A stretch of DNA of 11,534 bases, taken from positions 1 to 11,534 of the forward strand of contig JAZDLW010000025.1 of NCBI GenBank assembly GCA_043801595.1. The letters are read 5' to 3'. This DNA is from Candidatus Aenigmatarchaeota archaeon. Its GTDB lineage: Archaea; Aenigmatarchaeota; Aenigmatarchaeia; JACPZZ01. Shown here piece after piece: positions 657-11,225 of this stretch. Both the position numbers and the translations under genes were made by a program. Within the stretch, counting starts at the first letter, position 1. Each line of letters begins with the position of its first letter. Below the pieces are notes generated by a model that was given only the letters and a program-made list of their open reading frames with translations, had not been told where the DNA came from and did no database searches.

Positions 657-707
657 TATAGATGAACAGTACGCTTTAAATAAGTGTGGTTAACACAGAG
701 AAAAACA

Positions 708-721
708 GCGAAAGTTTATAA
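708..721 (+). promoter_or_regulatory. Archaeal BRE + TATA box for acs (probably leaderless mRNA)
   Basis: GCGAAAG-TTTATAA; the TATA at 715-721 ends ~22 nt upstream of ATG 744. Confidence 0.7.
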
Positions 722-743
722 TCATTGTAAGCGAGATATCTTC

Positions 744-2627
744 ATGGCAGACTTACTTGAGAATCTATTCATCGAAAACGAGTTGTACAAACCCGATAAG
801 AAGGTGATTGCGAACGCTAATGTAAAGGATTATGATACTGTTTACGGCGAATCAATAAAGAATCCGCAGAAATTCTGGGGCGAACGAGCAAAAGAATTAA
901 ACTGGTTCAAACCCTGGAATAAAACGCTCGAATGGAAATATCCCTGGGCAAAATGGTTTGCCGGCGGCAAAATAAACATTTGTTACAACGCGCTTGACCG
1001 CCATGTTGAAAACGGTTTCGGCGACAAGACGGCATTTTTCTGGATCGGCGAAAGCGGAAAGAGAAAAAAGATAAGCTATGCAGAGCTTTTAACGCAGGTC
1101 AAAAAGTTTTCGAACGTACTGAAAAGCCTCGGTATAAAAAAGGGCGACAAGGTGACGATTTACATGCCGCGCATACTCCAGCAGGTCATTGCGATGCTTT
1201 CGTGCGCGAGAATCGGTGCAGTGCACAACGTCGTTTATTCCGGTTTCAGTTCAGGGGCACTGAAAGACCGCGTCCAGTCTGCGGGGTCGAAGGTAATCGT
1301 GACAGCAGACGGCGGGTTGTACAAAGGCAAGGTTGTCGAGCTCAAAAAAATTGTTGATGAGATACGCGGCGAATGCGAAAACATCGAACATGTGATTGTT
1401 GCGCGGCACGTTGACCCTGGCGCCAAATTAAACGAAAACGACCTTGACTGGGATTCGCTGATGGCGAAGGCTGATGATAACTGCGAATGCGAAGTTACGG
1501 ATGCGAACGATCCGCTGTTCATGCTGTTCACATCCGGAACGACCGGGAAACCGAAGGGTGTTGTTCATTCGCACGGCGGTTATGCTGTCGGCGTTTATAC
1601 GACAATGAAATGGGTTTTCGATATTAAACCAGACGATGTTTACTGGTGCACAGCGGATGCGGGTTGGATCACAGGCCACAGTTATATCGTGTACGGTCCG
1701 TTGATGAATTGTGTTACGGGAATAATTTACGAAGGCGGGCCTGTTACGCCCGATCCCGGCAGGTGGTGGTCGATTATCCAGGATTACAAAGTTACCATAT
1801 TTTATACAGCGCCGACTGCCGTACGGTTGCTGATGAAAAGCGGGGACGAATGGCCAGCGAAATACAATCTTTCGTCGCTGCGATTGCTCGGTTCGGTCGG
1901 CGAACCGATTAATCCGGAGGCGTGGCTATGGTACCGCAAGGTGGCGGGAAACAAACCGATAATGGACACGTGGTGGCAGACTGAAACGGGGATGATAATG
2001 ATAACGCCGCTCCCTTCCATGGATTTGAAACCCGGTTCTGTTGCAAAGCCTTTTCCCGGAATAGTCGCGGACATAGTCGACCAAGATGGAAAATCCGTGC
2101 CGGAAAAAAAAGGCGGCTTGCTGGTTATCCGCGATCCGTGGCCTGCAATGATGGTCGCGATAAACAACAACACCGAGAAATACGAATCATACTGGAACAC
2201 TGTTCCGAACGTTTATCTGGCAGGCGATGTTGCAAACAAAGACAAGGACGGTTATTTCTGGATAATGGGAAGGAGCGATGATGTGATAAAAGTTTCCGGT
2301 TACAGGCTCGGGTCTGCGGAGATTGAAAGCGCGCTCGTCAGCCATCCTTCCGTGGCTGAGGCGGCGGTTATCGGAAAACCGGACGACGTCAAGGGCGAGA
2401 CGATAAAGGCATTCGTAACTCTTAAGGTCGGACAGGTGCCATCGCCTTTGCTGATAGACGAATTAAAAGCCCATGTCAGGAAAGTCATAGGGCCGATTGC
2501 GATTCCATCCGAGATCGCATTCGTTGAGTCGCTGCCGAAAACGAGGAGCGGAAAAATAATGAGGCGCGTTTTGAAGGCGAAAGAACTGGGATTACCGTTG
2601 GGCGACACCTCGACACTCGAGGACTAA
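744..2627 (+). CDS. acs: Acetyl-CoA synthetase (AMP-forming acetate-CoA ligase)
   Basis: AMP-binding motif FTSGTTGKPKG, plus YWCTADAGWITGHSY, GSVGEPINPEAW, DTWWQTETG and C-terminal LPKTRSGKIMRR. Start moved from GTG 684 to ATG 744 because the BRE/TATA lies at 708-721. Confidence 0.96.
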   Translation: MADLLENLFIENELYKPDKKVIANANVKDYDTVYGESIKNPQKFWGERAKELNWFKPWNKTLEWKYPWAKWFAGGKINICYNALDRHVENGFGDKTAFFWIGESGKRKKISYAELLTQVKKFSNVLKSLGIKKGDKVTIYMPRILQQVIAMLSCARIGAVHNVVYSGFSSGALKDRVQSAGSKVIVTADGGLYKGKVVELKKIVDEIRGECENIEHVIVARHVDPGAKLNENDLDWDSLMAKADDNCECEVTDANDPLFMLFTSGTTGKPKGVVHSHGGYAVGVYTTMKWVFDIKPDDVYWCTADAGWITGHSYIVYGPLMNCVTGIIYEGGPVTPDPGRWWSIIQDYKVTIFYTAPTAVRLLMKSGDEWPAKYNLSSLRLLGSVGEPINPEAWLWYRKVAGNKPIMDTWWQTETGMIMITPLPSMDLKPGSVAKPFPGIVADIVDQDGKSVPEKKGGLLVIRDPWPAMMVAINNNTEKYESYWNTVPNVYLAGDVANKDKDGYFWIMGRSDDVIKVSGYRLGSAEIESALVSHPSVAEAAVIGKPDDVKGETIKAFVTLKVGQVPSPLLIDELKAHVRKVIGPIAIPSEIAFVESLPKTRSGKIMRRVLKAKELGLPLGDTSTLED

Positions 2628-2634
2628 AAAAAAA
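2626..2634 (-). terminator. Oligo-T (T9 on minus strand) archaeal terminator candidate for the HAD gene
   Basis: A9 run on the plus strand, 23 nt downstream of the HAD stop, at the convergent junction with acs. Confidence 0.45.
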
Positions 2635-2657
2635 TTAACAAACCATTTAATGCCTGA

Positions 2658-3344
2658 TTAATAAACCTTGCCGAGAGATTCCAGAAGTCTTGGAAGGGTT
2701 TTTATGTCTTTCAGGTACGCGTCCGGCTTTATTTCCGCGCGTTTGGCGCCGGTGTTTCCGTACGAAGCGAGAATCGTCGTCATGCCGAGCGCTTTCGCGC
2801 CTTTCACATCGCGAAGCAGGTTGTCGCCGACCATCACGCACTCCTTTGGTTTTACGTTTAATTTTTTCGCGATTGCCATAAAAGGCTTCGGGTGTGGCTT
2901 GTATTTGCGGGTGTCTTCGTAAGCGATGACGGCGTCGAAAGAATTTTCAAGGCCCATTTCAACGAGCCGTGACCATGCCTGTATAGCGGGCGCGTCGGAC
3001 AATATTGCCAGCTTGTATTTTTTTCCGAGTTTGCGCAGAACGTTTTTTACATTCGGGTACGTGATCAACTTTTCATTTTTCATCCTTCGGTAGGCGATTA
3101 TTCCCGCAGCCATTATTTTATAATCTACTTTTCCCGTCAATGCCTTGAGCAAAGGCTGGAATATCTTCTGGTATTCTATGCCCTTTTCGTCGTAAATCCT
3201 GAACAAAGTTTTCCACGCCTTGCGTTTCGGCGTTTTTAACCCGGCCTTTTTCATCGCGTTGATTGCAGCATTACAGCTCGCTATTTTCGTTCCCATGAAA
3301 TCTATCAGGGTGTTGTCCAGATCGAATATGACCGCTTTTATCAT
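2658..3344 (-). CDS. HAD-superfamily hydrolase, subfamily IA (phosphatase/nucleotidase-like)
   Basis: Motif I IFDLDNTL, motif II ILSD, motif III YKPHPKPF, motif IV MVGDNLLRDV. Confidence 0.93.
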   Translation of the reverse strand: MIKAVIFDLDNTLIDFMGTKIASCNAAINAMKKAGLKTPKRKAWKTLFRIYDEKGIEYQKIFQPLLKALTGKVDYKIMAAGIIAYRRMKNEKLITYPNVKNVLRKLGKKYKLAILSDAPAIQAWSRLVEMGLENSFDAVIAYEDTRKYKPHPKPFMAIAKKLNVKPKECVMVGDNLLRDVKGAKALGMTTILASYGNTGAKRAEIKPDAYLKDIKTLPRLLESLGKVY

Positions 3345-3361
3345 GCAAATAAACGGGTAAT

Positions 3362-3402
3362 ATGGTTAATAAACCATTTCGTTGGCTGTAAAATTTTAAT
3401 AA
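3362..3402. promoter_or_regulatory. Divergent TATA boxes for the HAD gene (minus, 3366-3373) and the membrane protein gene (plus, ~3394-3402)
   Basis: Minus strand CGAAATGG-TTTATTAA lies ~21 nt from ATG 3344; plus strand TTTTAATAA lies ~21 nt from ATG 3424. The inverted repeat ATGGTT-AATA-AACCAT (3362-3377) overlaps the first box. Confidence 0.55.
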
Positions 3403-3423
3403 TAAGCTAAACGAACTACTGCT

Positions 3424-3798
3424 ATGAATAAGATACCGCAGATGCACATTTGGGCCACGTTTTCCGTTTCGATCGCGATAATGATTTTTTTCACGCTTTC
3501 CGTCGCGTTCCTGTCCCATGGTCTGGTTGCGCTGGTCGTATCATCGGCGCTGCTGGTTTTGATCGGAGTTTATTTTGTGGCGTACTACCACAAGGTTAAG
3601 GAAGCGGTTGAGCGGAAACTCCTTGCGTTACTGAATGTGTCTCTTGCGCTCGGCTTCTTTCCATTCATTGGCATAAACCATATGCTCGGCGGCGTGATTG
3701 CGCCGTACGTCTGGTTGTCGCTTGTGACGCTTAATCTTGCGTACAGCGTTGGTTTGATACTTTATCACGACATGCGGATAGAAGAAATTTTCAGATAG
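3424..3798 (+). CDS. Hypothetical integral membrane protein (~4 TM helices)
   Basis: 124-aa ORF with four long hydrophobic stretches; fits between neighbours and its stop abuts a convergent gene. Confidence 0.8.
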   Translation: MNKIPQMHIWATFSVSIAIMIFFTLSVAFLSHGLVALVVSSALLVLIGVYFVAYYHKVKEAVERKLLALLNVSLALGFFPFIGINHMLGGVIAPYVWLSLVTLNLAYSVGLILYHDMRIEEIFR

Positions 3799-3803
3799 CT
3801 TTA

Positions 3804-4799
3804 TTAAAGCGTTTCATAAACTGCCGGAATTATTCTTAGTGTCCTGTTCGCACGGTAAAAATCCATGAGATGAAGCGCCCAGCCTACGAGCCTGTTAAGT
3901 CTCGGATCGTTTTTGCCGTAAACTTGTCCCAATGCATTGGCGTTCATTTTTCTCTGCCCTATCACGCGCTGCGGGTTATCCGGGTGGACGTACCTTGTCA
4001 ATTCAACAAAATTTTCTTTGTCTATATCGTATTCGACATACAGGCTTGTGTGAAGGAGAAACTTTCTTGGACGTCGCGAATCGTTTTCAACTTCGGCAAT
4101 GCACTCAGCCGACTCCTCATCGAGCAGATCCTGTTCAAGCGTATTGTTAAAATGAAGATAGCCTGCGTTTCTCATTAAGGTTTGCCACGTATGTATTTCT
4201 TCGTGCCTTTCCGTAACAGCGCTCGCGCTTATTTGAATAGCCGCAGGTTTTCTTGGTTCGCCTTCCCGGAACCATTCTCCTTGATATACGGGAAAATAAT
4301 CAGTGCGCGCAAAGAATATTGAACCGCTCAATGCTCTTCGCACTTCTGGTTTTATGTCGTATGGGGAAAGGCATAGGCCGTTTGATGAGGCGAATCCTTT
4401 TTTGAAATCCAATGCGGCGCAAGTATAATAAAATTGTTCGCCGCTCATGGAAAACTGCAGGCTGTAAGGCCGGCGCTGGGTTTCTATTTTTTGCGATTCG
4501 TCGTTGAAAGGCATGTCGCGCAGAATCTCCTGCGGAAATATTTTTGCGAGCAGTTCGGCGCCTGTTTCTTCGAACTCCGAAACAGAGTTTATCCGGTCGT
4601 ACGCGATTGCGCCAAGATTCCTGAAACGCCCGCCGTCTTTTAACCTGGCTGCGGTTGAATTGACAAATCCGTGGAACGCAACTGCGTCGCAGTGCCTGTT
4701 TCCGAGCCTTTGCGCCATTGTTTCGAGTTCCATCAGCGCTTTGGCGTCGTCCAGAATATGTCTTATTTTCAACGCTTCGCGGGGACCAAAAGTTAACAT
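3804..4799 (-). CDS. Hypothetical protein with HEEIH (HExxH) motif, possible zinc-binding/gluzincin-like
   Basis: 331-aa ORF; HEEIH at 4191-4205 followed ~25 residues later by DEESAE. Confidence 0.75.
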   Translation of the reverse strand: MLTFGPREALKIRHILDDAKALMELETMAQRLGNRHCDAVAFHGFVNSTAARLKDGGRFRNLGAIAYDRINSVSEFEETGAELLAKIFPQEILRDMPFNDESQKIETQRRPYSLQFSMSGEQFYYTCAALDFKKGFASSNGLCLSPYDIKPEVRRALSGSIFFARTDYFPVYQGEWFREGEPRKPAAIQISASAVTERHEEIHTWQTLMRNAGYLHFNNTLEQDLLDEESAECIAEVENDSRRPRKFLLHTSLYVEYDIDKENFVELTRYVHPDNPQRVIGQRKMNANALGQVYGKNDPRLNRLVGWALHLMDFYRANRTLRIIPAVYETL

Positions 4800-4906
4800 T
4801 AGAGATATAACAAGCCGGTTAAAGTTTTAAAATCGAATTACAGGCTCTAAAAAAAATCTGCGTTTGACGTAGTTGTTATCGTCAATAAGCGATAAAAATA
4901 GCCTAA

Positions 4907-4914
4907 TTTTATAT
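4907..4914 (+). promoter_or_regulatory. TATA box for the phytoene/squalene synthase-like gene
   Basis: TTTTATAT ending ~23 nt upstream of ATG 4938. Confidence 0.55.
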
Positions 4915-4937
4915 GTCTACCAGCTCATTACCTAAGT

Positions 4938-5879
4938 ATGAAGTCGCTGACGGATCGTGCGCTGTTGCGAAAAGCAAGGACTGCCTGCAAACGAGCGAAT
5001 AAAGTCCTTTATTTATTGACATACCTTTTTCCGAAAGAGAAGCGCGCGCCCACACTTTTTTTATATTATTATTTCAGGGGCATAGACGACGAGATAGATA
5101 AGAAAGGCTTGACAGAAACATCGCGGATGAAAACCATAAATTACTGGAGAAAGCGCATGGAGGGGTTGTTCGAAGGAAAACTTCCAAACGACATGAACGA
5201 CAAGGACAGGGCGCTTTACAATTTCATACAATATGACCCGAAAATGGCAGAGGGAATAAAGCCGCAGATAGGAAACATCTTTGACATAATGGAGTTCGAT
5301 TCGAAGAATCGCAATAAACTTGTTTCATATGAAGATCTTATCCATTACTGCTATCTCACAGGCGGCGCGCCTTTCATTATTGCGCTGTCGCTTCTGGACC
5401 AGCGGGTAGACGAAACGACAAAAGAAAATATAGCGCAGACGCTAGGTGTTGGTATACAGCTCGCGCACATTCTGCGGGATTTCAAAGAGGATTTGCGATT
5501 AAAAGATGCGAAGATAACGACAACGGAGACTGTTAAATTTAACCTGCTTGGCTCCAATTTGAAAAACGTAGAGACGTGGAGGCAGTTTGCGATCCAGCGC
5601 GTTGAAGAGGCTGCGAAATTCCTTGACGACGGAAGAAGGTACATAAAAGAAATACCGAGCAACACGCTGAAATTTTCTTTGGCTTTGTGGAGATGGAAAT
5701 ACCTTTCAATTCTCAAAAAAATACAATTGCGCGATTACGATCTGATGTCGAACTACAAAAAAACGAAACCGAGGGAGCTGTTTGCATCGTTGTCAATACT
5801 GGTAAAAGAATTATCGTACGTTGTCGTGAATATTTTCAAACCGAGGCGAGCGTCACACCGTCCGTTTTTTGTGAAATAA
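4938..5879 (+). CDS. Phytoene/squalene synthase family protein (head-to-head prenyl diphosphate condensation)
   Basis: First Asp-rich motif YYYFRGIDDEID, central DLIHYCYLTGG, second motif LGVGIQLAHILRDFKED. Substrate (FPP vs GGPP) cannot be determined from the sequence. Confidence 0.88.
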   Translation: MKSLTDRALLRKARTACKRANKVLYLLTYLFPKEKRAPTLFLYYYFRGIDDEIDKKGLTETSRMKTINYWRKRMEGLFEGKLPNDMNDKDRALYNFIQYDPKMAEGIKPQIGNIFDIMEFDSKNRNKLVSYEDLIHYCYLTGGAPFIIALSLLDQRVDETTKENIAQTLGVGIQLAHILRDFKEDLRLKDAKITTTETVKFNLLGSNLKNVETWRQFAIQRVEEAAKFLDDGRRYIKEIPSNTLKFSLALWRWKYLSILKKIQLRDYDLMSNYKKTKPRELFASLSILVKELSYVVVNIFKPRRASHRPFFVK

Positions 5880-6008
5880 AAATATTCTAGTATTCTTTAT
5901 GCGCGATTCGGCGCAGCGACAACGTTCGCGGCGCTGGTTATAATTTTAGTGCTAACGTTGTACGCTGCGCGTAGGATTATAAATACAAACAAAAAATTAC
6001 TAAGATGA
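5880..6008 (+). other. In-frame, start-less 42-codon continuation behind the synthase stop, encoding a TM-anchor-like tail
   Basis: Same frame as 4938..5879: KYSSILYARFGAATTFAALVIILVLTLYAARRIINTNKKLLR*. It ends at TGA 6006-6008, 4 nt from the convergent gene stop. Confidence 0.6.
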
Positions 6009-6012
6009 ATTT

Positions 6013-6363
6013 TCAATCATCTTCGTCGTTGTATAATTCGTGATAGAATTTCCTTACGCCTACTTCGAAAGATGTTCTGTGTGAAGGATCGGCAACGGTT
6101 TTATCATAAACTTGCATCATGGCATTGACATTTCTTTGTAATTCGGTTTCTCTTTCTATAGATTCTCGCGCCGATTCCCGCATTTCAGCTTCCTTTATGG
6201 TATAACGATCAACAACTTTTCCCGTTTCCCGGTCAATTTCCACAATTGTATGATTAAAAGAAAGCATCAAAGAGTACCAGGTATAATTAAAGAGTCCTCT
6301 CATCTGGCAGAACGGGCCGTGTAAAGCATCCAAAGGGCGTTTAAAAACACTTGCGTAATCCAT
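6013..6363 (-). CDS. Hypothetical protein (116 aa)
   Basis: ATG-start ORF with protein-like composition; minus-strand TTTATAT at 6386-6392, ~22 nt upstream. Confidence 0.7.
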   Translation of the reverse strand: MDYASVFKRPLDALHGPFCQMRGLFNYTWYSLMLSFNHTIVEIDRETGKVVDRYTIKEAEMRESARESIERETELQRNVNAMMQVYDKTVADPSHRTSFEVGVRKFYHELYNDEDD

Positions 6364-6546: not shown

Positions 6547-6580
6547 AGAATGCAATTTGAATTTAGGATTGAGTTCAAAC
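6547..6580 (-). other. 3' arm of the pre-23S processing stem (helix 1 + BHB)
   Basis: RNA GUUUGAACUCAAU-CCUA-AAU-UCAAAUUGCAUUCU pairs with 10605-10639. Confidence 0.85.
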
Positions 6581-6744
6581 ACTTCAGGTTTTTGGGGATC
6601 GCGGGCTGAACATCTCGTTGCCTTGATGCGTACACCCCGATTCCATCAAACTCGTCGTCTACGAGACCTTTTTATTCGCACCGATGCATTGCTGCACCAG
6701 TTTGAAAATGATCGCCTAGTATTTGAGGACAGTTTCGGACTTAG

Positions 6745-6909
6745 TTAAGCAGAAAAAAGCTGGATCATCTAACCCAAATGTAACACCCGTTTTCACAGTA
6801 ATGCAAAAATTTTTGCAAACTCAACGGACTGACCATTGGGACAACTATTAGCTAAAGCAGACGTAATTTTGCATGGCATCTGCTTCAATTAAATTCCAAC
6901 TGATCTCTT
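6745..6909 (-). other. BHB-type (endonuclease-spliced) archaeal intron, 165 nt, after ~U2754 (H97 loop), no ORF
   Basis: Removal restores CUGAAAGCAU|CUAAG. The junction folds as a canonical BHB: central helix AAGC/GCUU, bulges AU|A and AA|C with both splice sites after bulge nt 2, intron stem AGAGA/UUUCU plus AGUUGG/CCAGCU, exon stem GGACU/AGUCC. Confidence 0.9.
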
Positions 6910-7185
6910 ATGCTTTCAGTCCTTAACTGCATACAGCGTGGCTGCCCAGCAATGCCGTTTCCGACAACTGGTAAACTAGTGGCTGCGGCAGGATGTTCCT
7001 TTCGTACTAATTCTGCCTTCCTCTCAGGCGATTGACACCAACAATAGATAAAGACCGAACTGTCTCACGACGTTCTAAACCCAGCTAAAGTCCCCCTTTA
7101 ACCAGTGAACACCTGTACCCTTGGCTGCTGCTGCACAGCCAGGAGGGGGGTAGCCGACAGCGACGCCTCAACGCGCGGGGTCGAT

Positions 7186-7321
7186 TTGTTCTCGCCCAGC
7201 ACTCCGTCCTAAACGGCTGAAAAATATTCTTGCGAATAGTTTTCAGCCGGCTATTTTCCGTTTGGTTTAGACCAGATTGTGATCTAATCATTAAGGAAGA
7301 TACTAAATGAGTGCAGACGAA
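7186..7321 (-). other. BHB-type archaeal intron, 136 nt, after ~U2477 (H89 apical loop), no ORF
   Basis: Removal restores GAGUUCCU|AUCGAC. BHB: central helix GUUC/GAAC, bulges CU|U and AA|A, intron stem UCGUCU-GCACUC/GAGUGC-U-GGGCGA, and an internal GCAA-capped hairpin. Confidence 0.9.
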
Positions 7322-7919
7322 AGGAACTCTCGCCCGCCACGAACCCATTATCCCCGAGGTAGCTTTTCTGATACACCAAGCCCCCATTCAGGAGGCATTG
7401 GGGATCGCTAAATCACGCTTTCGCGGCTGGAACCCTTGCTTTTCAGGATCCAGTCAGGCTAGCTTTTGCTTTTACACTCTTCTCTCCATTTCTGACGGAG
7501 ATGAGCTAACCATAGAGCACTCTTGATCTCCTGTCAAGAACGTACCGCCCCAGTCAAACTGCCCATCTAGCGGTGTCATGGATCTTTGTAATCCAATAAG
7601 CAATACAATCAAAAAAGGGCTGTGTTACATTGGCGCCTATACACGATCCGGAAACCGTGTCTTGGCAGCTCCAGCCTACACTATGCAATTCTAATCGTAC
7701 CGCAGCACCAGACTGCAGTAAAGCTCTACGGGGTCTTCTCTTCCCATTGTTGGTCTCAGGTCTATTCACCTGAATGACAATTTCACTGGGTCTCTACCCG
7801 GGACAGCGCGAAAGTAGTTGAGCCTATCATGCGGGTCGACATTTAATCGACAAGGGATTACGCTACCTTAAGCACCTGACTTACATTGCTGTAAGAGTCG
7901 GACCATATCATCGTTCTTT

Positions 7920-8432
7920 TCAAAACGTTTGGCGTATGGTCTCTGAGGATCCCACTTGATCCAATATTTCTTCTAATTTGTGTTTTCTCTGCTTTCCTTC
8001 GAGATTCATTTCGTAAGCCTTTCTTACGAGTTGCTTGAATCTTTCCAAATCGGAATGCTCTTTGTTTTCCAGAGCCCTCACGATTTCTGAAAACTTTCTG
8101 AAGTCGTCGTTCTTTGCTATTGGTTCAAATTTTTCAAAGAACGATAAAACCTTTTCAGCCAATTGCTTGCGGTTATCTACAAGAAAGACCAGAAGATCTT
8201 CTTGGCCGGATTTTTCTATTATTCTTCCACAACCAAGTTCCTTTTTGAATAACTCCAGCACAATTTTATTTTTCTTGTGCTGTGTTACCTGAAAGATCGG
8301 ATCCAAAGTAAATCCGAATCTTGCTGTATCTTCTCTTTTTACCGCAACACTGAAACAGGCTTCTCCATCAGAAAATCCAAGCAGATAGTAACGAAGGAAG
8401 TTTTTGTTTTTCTGAAGTTTACTCAACTCCAT
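7920..8432 (-). CDS. LAGLIDADG homing endonuclease, single-motif (homodimeric I-CreI/I-CeuI type)
   Basis: YYLLGFSDGEACFSV motif, FQVTQ and LGCGRI segments; 170 aa, intact, inside the group I intron. Confidence 0.93.
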   Translation of the reverse strand: MELSKLQKNKNFLRYYLLGFSDGEACFSVAVKREDTARFGFTLDPIFQVTQHKKNKIVLELFKKELGCGRIIEKSGQEDLLVFLVDNRKQLAEKVLSFFEKFEPIAKNDDFRKFSEIVRALENKEHSDLERFKQLVRKAYEMNLEGKQRKHKLEEILDQVGSSETIRQTF

Positions 8433-8438
8433 AAATCA

Positions 8439-8446
8439 ATCACCTC
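8439..8446 (-). promoter_or_regulatory. Shine-Dalgarno site for the intron-encoded endonuclease
   Basis: GAGGUGAU 6 nt upstream of ATG 8432; matches the archaeal SD consensus. Confidence 0.8.
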
Positions 8447-10604
8447 TTTGTGGTTTCCTGCTGATTGTCCCTCATTGTTTTCGGGGTTTGTTACTTTCTC
8501 AGTACCCCTAAACTCTTGGAGTTCCAGCATATAGCCAAATTTAACGACCGCCTTATTCTCTTTGCTAACGGTCAGAGTTACCGCCGCCGTATAGCGGGGC
8601 TTCACCCGGTTGAAACCAGGCTTTACACACCGCCACTGGGCAGGCTTTAAGATCTGTACGAACCATTACTGGCTAGCAGATCCCAGCGTTTTTATTAAAC
8701 AGTCCCTCTCGCCTTGTTACTGAGACCAGCTCATCACTGAGCTGGCACTCCTTATTCCGAAGTTACGGAGCTAGATTGCCGATTTCCCTGGGTAGAGTTC
8801 ACCCAACACGTCTTCGCCTTCTCAGCGTGGACACCTGTAGCGGTTCTTGATACGGACATCTGGAATCCTTACTGCTCTTATTTCATGGACCCCAGGATTC
8901 GGTAGAATACCCTTGCGGGTACCACTCACACATTCATTTGATTCTCCTCATTAAGAGACTCCTCAAACTTAGATGCTTGGCAGTGACGATGGTCACTGTC
9001 CACTTATCCAGAGGCGTAGATGCAGTCACGCCTTGCGGCACGTATCCAGATGGTGCAGGAATATTAACCTGCTTGCCTTTTCGGTTTTACCCAGTTAGGG
9101 CTAACCTTAGGATCGACTAACTCCTGGTTGACGAACGTTGCCAGGAAACTCTTGTCCTTTAGACGGTCAAGATTCACACTCGACTTTGCTGTTACTATCG
9201 GTAGGATTCTTACTTCCCAAAGGTCCACTTCTTCTCACGAAGGAGCTTCTGCCCTAAGGGAACACCCCCTTACCACTTTGGAACAAATTCCAAAATCCAA
9301 GGTATCGGTAGTTAACTTAGTCCCTTCCATTTTGGGCGCCCCAATTCTAGACGGGTCAGCTATTACGCACTGTTTAAAGGGTGGCTGCTTCTGAGCCAAC
9401 CTCCCCGCTGTTTAAGAACTGAGACATCCTTTGCCACTTAGCTAACATTTAGGGACCTTAACCTTGGTCTCCGTTGTTCCGGTCTCGGATACCGAGCTTA
9501 CCCCGGTAACCTCACTCCCGTCTTCTACGACGATTACAGTTTCCGAGTTTGACAGGAAATCTGTCTCTTTCGAAACTTGGATTCCCAATCAGTGCTGTAC
9601 TCTGTAATCAATCTCCGACGAGGCTGAGCTGAGGCTCATTTCAGGGGGAACCAGCTATCCCTGATCTCGATTGGCTTTTCACCCCTAATCCCTGGTCTCG
9701 GGAACGGATTGAATACCAGAACCCCTAACGGCCCTCCACCCCGATTTCTCGGGGCTTCAGCCTACCAAGGACTAGATCGACCAGATTCGGGTTTTATTCC
9801 GGTGACTTCCCGCGCTTTCACACGGCGTTCCTAGCTGCACGAAGCAGTTGCGAACTTGTCGCTTTCGCTTTGACTCCACCGCTTAACGGCTTAGTCTCGC
9901 CACAGAAATAAACTCCCTACCGCGTTTTTCAAAACGTACGACACCACTCCGGCATCCTTCCCCTTACAAAACCCTCACGAGTTCTTCATTCGGAAGGAAG
10001 ATCCTTTCGAGCAGTGTCCGGCTATTGCCATTTGGTTTCAGGTTCTTTTCATTCCCTTTCAAGGGTTCTTTTCAACTTTCCGTCACCGTACTAATATTCT
10101 ATCGGACTTCGTTTGTATTTAGCGTTGGATGTAAATGCCACCCAAATTCCCACAACATATCCAAGTTGCGGTACTCAGGATACTTGGTATCCACCTTCTT
10201 TTCTTCGCCTACGGGGCTATCACCCTGTGTCGCGCTTCTTTCCAGAAGCTTTGGCTCAAAAAGCTGGGCAGAACCCAAGTCCTATAACTCCACATCTCCC
10301 CTACCTCGTCGATAGGGGATTCGGTTTGCGCTGTTGCGCTTTTACTCGCCGTTACTAACGCAATCTCAATTGATTTCTTTTCCTGGGGCTACGAAGATGC
10401 TTCAACTCACCCCGTTCTCTTTCGGAAGCCTGACACACACTTGCGTGTGTGTCTAGCTACCCGAACGTTAGAAGTTTATTCTAACAGGATGTCCCATTAG
10501 GAGATCCCTGGATCAAAGGCTGTATGCGCCTACCCAAGGCTTATCGCAGCTTACCACGTCCTTCTTCGACAACCGAAGCCGAGTCATCCACCAAATGGCG
10601 TCGA

Positions 10605-10639
10605 GTTTGAACTCAATTTTCCTATTTAATTGCCATTCT
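10605..10639 (-). other. 5' arm of the pre-23S processing stem (BHB + helix 1)
   Basis: RNA AGAAUGGCAAUUAAA-UAGG-AAA-AUUGAGUUCAAAC; UAGG pairs with CCUA (6564-6567), flanked by 3-nt bulges AAA and AAU. Confidence 0.85.
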
Positions 10640-11225
10640 TTGAACGAATTTTTTAAATTCGATCAAAAAGACTTTTTTTCATTGAACTACTGAAACGAAA
10701 ATATTTTTTTAGAATATCTGTTGTTCCAGTAATCCACTGCGGCCTGCCTATGATGCATCATTACGATAAAGCCCCCGATGGGACTCAGTATCATTTCGCC
10801 CGGATCTGCAAAGCATCTGCAAATCGTCGTAATTGATTCCTATACAAGCTCCAAAGGTGTTCTTTCTCGTCATCGGGTAGCGAGAAACAGGTTTTACCTG
10901 TTTCAGCTTACTACGCTCTTGAGACAGTTACTTCGCGTCATTGCCTGTGCAAACTAAAACACAGTTCATGTGTTTCGGTCTGCGTTTGGTTTGAAAAGAT
11001 GTTACTCGTTCCAAACCATTCGTATCTGTTATGTTTCCTACTATAATACTATAATATTAGCAGCCAGACAGTATCCGGCAACGAGGTGTCGTATATCCGA
11101 AACCTCTCCAGTCTTTTGCTGGTCGGCACGCTTTTTCATGCCAGTCTTTAAGACTGTAAAAATAGTTCCAATGCAGGTTTATTGTCCTGTCATACTAACC
11201 AGCAGAATTATATTCAACCGACTAG

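Follow-up and report, generated by a model that had tools for sequence, protein, structure and literature searches.

The 23S rRNA gene on an 11,534-nucleotide contig of a Candidatus Aenigmatarchaeota archaeon (hereafter the window, meaning the whole stretch of DNA that was analysed) carries a cluster of substitutions in its peptidyl-transferase centre (PTC), several of them at positions known from antibiotic resistance. The locus raises the question of whether this centre is an artefact, a decaying gene, a product of drug selection, or a working PTC that has been rebuilt. A sequence-only reading had favoured the last of these, a naturally remodelled A-site cleft that may be intrinsically insensitive to drugs. 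The PTC is taught as near-universal, and throughout the phylum described below, changes are fixed at positions for which 98–100% conservation is listed (C2452, 100/100; A2503, 99.6/98.3; PMC7345174, Table 3).

The 23S rRNA Locus and Its Introns

The window is one contig of an 814-kb genome assembly that is 86% complete, and its 23S rRNA gene contains three introns (Table 1). A second, canonical 23S copy, which the sequence-only reading had named as a possible expressed gene, was looked for and is absent from the assembly at this completeness: the gene in the window is the sole match to RF02540, and blastn returned no other copy.

Table 1. Features of the 23S rRNA gene in the window (E. coli numbering for bases)
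Feature	Window positions	Strand	Evidence
23S rRNA gene, 3 introns	6572..10613	-	RF02540, 2446 bits, full model
Candidate BHB-type intron, 165 nt, domain VI	6745..6909	-	fold and RNA-contig junction
Kept core G2553 (7110, A-loop), U2585 (7078), A2602 (7061); U2611 (7052) pairs with A2057	7052..7110	-	
U2574 (pairs with A2512 at 7151), U2575, U2576	7087..7089	-	E. coli alignment
G2496, G2497, C2498, G2499, U2500, C2501, G2502, C2503, U2504, G2505, U2506	7157..7167	-	
Candidate BHB-type intron, 136 nt, helix 89 loop, within the span of the PTC substitutions	7186..7321	-	
A2450, A2451 canonical, then U2452, G2453 substituted	7346..7349	-	E. coli alignment
PTC ring 5′ strand: A2055, A2057, G2058; invariant A2060, G2061, C2063–C2065	7731..7741	-	
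Group I-like intron, E. coli position 1923	7873..8567	-	RF00028, 28.8 bits (below the gathering score of 50), E 2.7e-5
LAGLIDADG ORF inside the group I-like intron	7920–8432	-	PF00961, E 1.3e-16

Excision of the helix 89 intron restores colinearity with the E. coli 23S; the intron is predicted to fold into a closed stem (z = −4.7), and in a relative's contig from an RNA library, 7185 is joined to 7324. In domain VI, record 1 of RNA-library run X1 joins 6744 to 6910 with 0 differences over 303 nt. The BHB label of these two introns is an interpretation of their predicted folds. Position 1923, the site of the third intron, is a known intron site (PMC6125680), and the spliced joint of this intron is seen in RNA-library contigs. 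Across the phylum, introns cluster in the PTC, near positions 2432, 2449, 2477, 2534, 2576, 2584, and 2597.

In a further contig from an RNA library, the two ends of the 23S, 3′ and 5′, are joined to each other (window 6562 and 10618), as expected for circular 23S rRNA or its precursor (PMC12918454, the main text of which has no mention of Aenigm- or DPANN). The 23S leader (window 10740–10945, minus strand) contains two C-box-like motifs, and after each comes a segment with complementarity to the PTC: one segment (10929–10920) is complementary to 23S positions 2596–2605, and the other, near 10860, to 8 bases of the A loop as judged by eye. Both units are kept in a genome of the same genus, the A-loop unit also in two other families, and they look like C/D guide RNAs carried in the 23S precursor.

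The 23S stands alone on the 11.5-kb contig, which has no 16S, 5S, or tRNA gene. Its neighbours at 684–6363 include, by Pfam, a HAD hydrolase, a squalene/phytoene-synthase-family gene, and a zincin-like protein, and the ORFs at 3424–3798, 3804–4799, and 6013–6363 have no Pfam match. A neighbouring protein of 647 residues, presumably acetyl-CoA-synthetase-like to judge from its motifs, is 74% identical to that of an Aenigmatarchaeota relative and at most 59% identical to those of the other 79 loci among the matches listed; together with the uL3 homologues described below, this places the genome in Aenigmatarchaeota.

Bases and Register of the PTC

The E. coli 23S (2904 nt), with its landmarks in register, served as the numbering ruler. 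Because the window aligns to it without gaps over 2425–2476 and 2479–2625, the register is fixed, and all seven substitutions fall where the sequence-only reading had placed them: C2452U (7347), A2453G (7346), C2496G (7167), A2497G (7166), C2499G (7164), A2503C (7160), and G2576U (7087). Its account of the surroundings is likewise correct, as A2451 (7348), U2506, G2553, U2585, and A2602 are canonical, the P loop equals the Rfam consensus, and the compensatory pairs A2512–U2574 (7151/7089) and A2057–U2611 (7739/7052) are present. A shift of register is ruled out by the gap-free alignment together with the intact helix pairs. The description of the substituted positions as near-invariant is accurate for 2452, 2497, 2503, and 2576, which are upper-case in the archaeal Rfam consensus, but not for 2453, 2496, and 2499, which are lower-case and variable. 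G2058 and A2055 are usual for archaea, occurring in 23/25 and 25/25 cases, respectively, in the outgroup phylum of small-genome archaea used here.

Within helix 89, G2496 (7167) faces G2455 (7344) as a G·G mismatch. These positions are paired in 128/135 genomes of the phylum and are G·G in 4/135, the carriers being three readable genomes of the window's family and one other that is intron-ambiguous; metagenome locus L279 carries it as well. The mismatch is the sole narrowly distributed part of the base set.

Spread across Aenigmatarchaeota

The phylum is represented by 371 genomes, 235 of which gave a match and 143 of which were read, comprising the best-scoring loci, which are biased toward the window, and 80 regions chosen for family spread. 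One genome without an alignment (G001) was dropped, one with a foreign-looking locus and G2576 (G185) was set aside, and mis-assigned ends were masked in three others (G005, G065, and G159), giving a final set of 141 genomes from 31 families.

U2576 is present in 140/141 genomes, the sole G2576 (G071) lying at an ambiguous intron junction. Position 2503 is C in 102, U in 26, and A in 11 of 139 genomes, a pyrimidine in 128/139; U2452 is found in 118/135 and G2453 in 116/135. Positions 2499 (G 66, U 50, C 12, A 9) and 2497 (G 50, U 47, A 33, C 7) are more freely populated, and further changes occur at 2500 (C in 45/137, non-U in 47/137), 2501 (substituted in 6/138), and 2504 (C in 26/139). The full seven-base set of the window recurs in 23/135 genomes (6 families); the bases at its five sites of the resistance type occur together in 43/135 (11 families). 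In total, 36 distinct haplotypes are found at 11 PTC sites. The unusual bases are a phylum-level trait and not a strain oddity, and their phylum-wide occurrence rules out strain-specific resistance.

The substrate-contacting core is untouched by this variation. A2451, U2506, G2553, U2585, A2602, G2061, and C2063 are invariant in 118–140 genomes each (G2553, U2585, and A2602 in 139–140), as is G2447 (133/133). Invariant positions in the readable genomes comprise 2060, 2061, 2063–2065, 2445–2447, 2450, 2451, 2454, 2498, 2502, 2506, 2508, 2509, 2553, 2573, 2581, 2583–2585, and 2601–2603.

Two further observations concern individual genomes. The 23S that was set aside (L199, on G185:C18) is 74% identical to outgroups versus 69% to any member of the phylum and has G2576, while the uL3 of the same genome matches its genus; the contig is probably mis-binned. 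U2062 occurs in 11 genomes, always with U2503.

Covariation

The strongest covariation is that of established helix pairs; this confirms that the alignment is sound and that structure is under selection. The counts are from genomes that are kin and are not independent events. Pairing is complete at 2507–2582 (138/138, U–A in 19), 2593–2600 (139/139), 2513–2571 (139/139), and 2512–2574 (138/138) and nearly so at 2057–2611 (115/116). The compensatory U2507–A2582 pair occurs in families f7, f20, and f33.

Within the substituted region, 2453–2500 is G·U in 70, G–C in 44, and A–U in 9 of 135 genomes, and the remaining 12 have C·U, U·U, or G·A without canonical pairing. C2500 accompanies G2453 in 44/44 cases, spread over 11 families, and is absent from the 19 genomes that lack G2453. 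Positions 2452 and 2504 are always pyrimidines (135/135). C2055 is found only alongside C2504 (21/21, in 3 families), an association that may be a single event.

Support for the Bases

Public runs were examined as contigs only. Over seven listed records, RNA run X1 shows 0 differences to the window and extends over the spliced junction in domain VI; the listed pieces leave 7073–7396 unspanned. RNA run X15, from a separate study, derives from a 93%-identical relative, and its record 11 (7345–7746) has 27 differences, all elsewhere, and agrees with the window at 7346 and 7347, which sit 1–2 letters from the end of the contig. The empty stretch at 8017–8310 in the lay-down of the RNA contigs was not counted as evidence. 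DNA can occur in RNA libraries. Reads had been proposed as a check on the substitutions; support of this kind extends to 7346/7347, from the X15 contig near its end, whereas 7087, 7160, and 7164 are supported by independent assemblies instead.

That the set stems from an assembly error, a misalignment, or a decaying pseudogene might be argued from the metagenomic origin of the genome (86% complete) and from the reliance of 7087, 7160, and 7164 on assemblies and not reads. Set against this are the gap-free register, the paired helices, the single-copy 23S, and the occurrence of the same bases in >100 independent genomes and in metagenome contigs, a recurrence that refutes chance error. The locus has no private, uncompensated changes that hit the core and no canonical second copy. 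The earlier argument against pseudogene decay is thus strengthened by the single copy, the invariant core, the compensatory pairs, the sharing of the bases with most of the 141 relatives, and the identical spliced contigs in an RNA library. We regard an artefact as very improbable, and the PTC is functional by every comparative test.

Outgroups

All 30 loci from the outgroup phylum have C2452, A2453, C2499, and G2576, and C2503 occurs in 4/30. From Thermoproteota, 49/60 genomes gave a match and 47 23S sequences were used (G410 and G373 were left out). G2576 and A2497 are present in 47/47; a Pyrobaculum-type set is found in 15/47, and C2452U occurs with A2503U in 5, three of which also have C2499G. 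None of the 47 has G2576U, variation at A2497, A2453G, or A2503C. An earlier control, a U2576 motif requiring A2590 that gave 0/251 in Thermoproteota, is invalid because the Thermoproteota examined have C2590.

A scan of metagenomes with a U2576 motif that bacterial sequences could also match returned at least 121 stretches, 80 of which were listed. Among those 80, 69 are nearest to Aenigmatarchaeota, 9 are unplaced archaea, and 2 have no rRNA hit; none is bacterial, in that none is nearest to E. coli. The nine unplaced loci (L261, L277, L282, L287, L300, L302, L304, L316, and L329) are archaeal 23S sequences with U2576 and C or U at 2503, 69–74% identical to Aenigmatarchaeota and about as far from them as from outgroups, or nearer to an outgroup. 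The proposition that U2576 is unique to Aenigmatarchaeota is not upheld given these 9/80 listed loci; the base is near-diagnostic for the phylum, not exclusive to it.

The uL3 Tryptophan Finger

We take yeast A2397, U2873, and A2872–U2875 to be E. coli 2055, 2504, and 2503–2506, and the yeast W-finger tryptophan of uL3 to neighbour E. coli 2055, 2504, and 2572. In yeast, W255 of uL3 holds A2397 in the syn conformation, so that it is stacked on U2873, and braces A2872–U2875 (Mailliot et al., PMC5331904). Tryptophan is the usual residue here in the uL3 of archaea and eukaryotes. The uL3 encoded in the window's own genome, outside the window (G000:C31:23168-24145, L404), has a lysine at this site. 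Its loop aligns without gaps to the archaeal chains 6skf, 9sra, and 9nri and is of the short archaeal type, next to the PTC; three named close homologues (80–86%) are from Aenigmarchaeota.

The tryptophan is absent in 57/57 members of the phylum (the window's genome and 56 of the 60 searched), which have 10 different residues at the site. It is present in 15/15 members of the outgroup phylum and in 8/15 of a first sample of Thermoproteota. Solved archaeal chains have W in 6skf, 9sra, and 4v4n, F in 9nri, and Q in Pyrobaculum calidifontis (9E6Q). A protein search for the uL3 of other DPANN returned 26 proteins, none of them named from another DPANN phylum. Since W255 braces 2503–2506 and G2576 stacks on G2505 (PMC11700844), both lost braces sit behind the changed strand.

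As a general rule, the idea that loss of the uL3 tryptophan causes PTC divergence is contradicted by the 45 Thermoproteota genomes parsed for both (a set without G591, which was not parsed, and G478, which lacked a uL3 match): 24 combine a non-W residue with a divergent PTC and 9 combine W with a canonical one, but 8 are non-W and canonical and 4 are W and divergent. This mismatch, together with G2576 in 47/47, indicates that loss of the tryptophan is neither necessary nor sufficient for PTC divergence in Thermoproteota and is at most permissive.

A Proposed Model of Stepwise Rebuilding

Given the substitutions and how widely the phylum shares them, the unchanged core, the compensatory pairs, and the absence of the uL3 tryptophan, we infer the following causes and order of events. 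Drift and compensation probably rebuilt the outer shells of a functional PTC step by step once braces had been lost, so that the second and third shells behind the A-site cleft changed and the core that contacts the substrates was kept. Two braces, both located behind the 2503–2506 strand, would have disappeared at an early stage of the lineage: the G2576–G2505 stack, with U2576, and the W-finger tryptophan of uL3, whose yeast counterpart fixes 2055 on U2504. Unclamping of the strand would have let A2503 become a pyrimidine, and the 2452/2453/2499/2500/2504 network may then have been re-paired step by step. In this sequence, A2453G would keep U2500 in a G·U wobble, the state of the window, other families would have completed G2453–C2500, and 2452 and 2504 would remain pyrimidine–pyrimidine. 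The likely driver would be drift and compensation in small-genome symbionts, with one rRNA copy in the window's genome.

The 36 haplotypes at 11 sites are what is expected of relaxed, compensated change and not of one selected state. The retention of A2503 in 11/139 genomes despite U2576 speaks against the brace-loss mechanism. In the rRNA tree, outgroups fall within the phylum and the backbone is unreliable; the tree was not used for rooting, so the near-canonical families (f21, f22, and part of f15) may either have retained their state or have reverted to it.

The set might instead be adaptive, with an A-site geometry tuned to a lineage-specific hibernation, release, or elongation factor or shaped by escape from host- or virus-encoded proteins that target rRNA. 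The fixation of U2576 in 140/141 genomes while its neighbours vary is in keeping with this proposal, as are the lack of a bacterial locus among the 80 metagenome matches listed, which suggests that U in such a context is rarely tolerated elsewhere, and the existence of PTC-binding hibernation factors in archaea (Nissley et al.). Fixation also follows from entrenchment after compensation, however, and a uL3 site with 10 different residues looks like lost constraint; we consider such adaptation improbable.

Beyond rebuilding by drift and compensation, a bolder and only tentative proposal is that Aenigmatarchaeota have a third A-site-cleft architecture, in which the coupled ancestral loss of the G2576–G2505 stack and the uL3 W finger opened at least 36 viable haplotypes and left the phylum insensitive to A-site-cleft inhibitors. 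The haplotypes form a natural allelic series, with A–U, G·U, and G–C intermediates at 2453–2500, that separates catalytic requirement from scaffold. They also allow the proposal that PTC mutability is set by uL3 to be tested independently a second time and give ribosome engineers base combinations shown viable by evolution.

Overlap with Drug Resistance

The resistance annotations of the sequence-only reading are correct for G2576, a change at which is the main clinical linezolid allele (PMC11700844), and for C2452U and A2453G, which are selected resistance alleles in Thermus (PMC7345174); 2499 and 2503 stand as resistance positions, but not with the bases G2499 and C2503. Oxazolidinones inhibit archaeal ribosomes, and the effects of such PTC mutations depend on the organism (PMC4652758). 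Given the Thermus alleles and this inhibition, reduced binding of inhibitors is plausible, and weaker binding of A-site-cleft inhibitors is rather likely to be a by-product of the changes and not their cause. Callers of resistance SNPs would mislabel Aenigmatarchaeota genomes.

The hypothesis that natural inhibitors of the PTC (compounds resembling anisomycin, chloramphenicol, or pleuromutilin) selected the set as a resistance trait would draw on these same alleles at 2452, 2453, and 2576, on the anisomycin resistance of yeast uL3 W255C (PMC5331904), and on the evasion of inhibitors raised for Thermoprotei by Nissley et al. Fixation over 31 families points instead to an ancient origin, linezolid is synthetic, and the sites toggle among many states, near-canonical ones included. 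Resistance sites are, moreover, the tolerated sites around the core, such that overlap is expected without selection, and the organism dependence of the mutations also counts against this hypothesis. We find drug selection unlikely.

Comparison with Known Divergent PTCs

An alignment of 3,686 archaeal 23S genes from GTDB has revealed divergent PTCs in Thermoprotei and Methanomethylicia, in work that also treats the E. coli A2453–U2500 and C2452–U2504 pairs and uL3-dependent mutability of the PTC and presents a ribosome structure of P. calidifontis (Nissley et al., bioRxiv 10.1101/2024.11.12.623245). The centres described there resemble those of Aenigmatarchaeota in having natural, clade-wide substitutions at 2447–2453 and 2500–2504 with the core kept, a short archaeal uL3 loop, and overlap with resistance sites; P. 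calidifontis uL3 also lacks the tryptophan. In Aenigmatarchaeota, the substitutions within these segments are at 2452, 2453, and 2503 in the window and at 2500, 2501, and 2504 in relatives. The Thermoprotei set (G2447A, A2453C, U2500C, C2501A, and U2504C), in contrast, is represented by 0/5 changes in the window, and the Thermoproteota examined keep G2576 (47/47), whereas Aenigmatarchaeota have fixed U2576.

The text of the Nissley preprint has no mention of Aenigm-, DPANN, 2576, 2503, 2055, W255, or tryptophan, and its supplements or journal version may show this variation; in the text of Ekemezie et al. (bioRxiv 2024.10.31.621234), 2576, 2503, 2452, 2453, archae-, and linezolid do not occur. 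Our search, which covered few subscription papers, found no published account of the Aenigmatarchaeota base set. The sequence-only reading had held that novelty would drop if the set were common across a well-studied clade. The set is common across a clade, but not a well-studied one, and divergent archaeal PTCs themselves were already known; what is new is a base set that differs from the published ones, with G2576U fixed.

Staphylococci and enterococci have in their G2576U allele the identical substitution, likewise behind G2505, but there it is recent, drug-selected, dose-dependent among several rRNA copies, and costly to growth (PMC11700844). In Aenigmatarchaeota, U2576 is fixed across the phylum, stands in an archaeal A2055/G2058 context, and lies in a single-copy gene in the window's genome; its presence in 140/141 genomes from 31 families does not fit a recent within-species variant on a G2576 background. 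The yeast uL3 W255C ribosome shares the loss of the W-finger tryptophan but is a laboratory mutant with slowed peptidyl transfer (PMC5331904). The natural loss of this tryptophan across Aenigmatarchaeota, as judged from 57/57 proteins and accompanied by rRNA changes in the braced strand, is new here.
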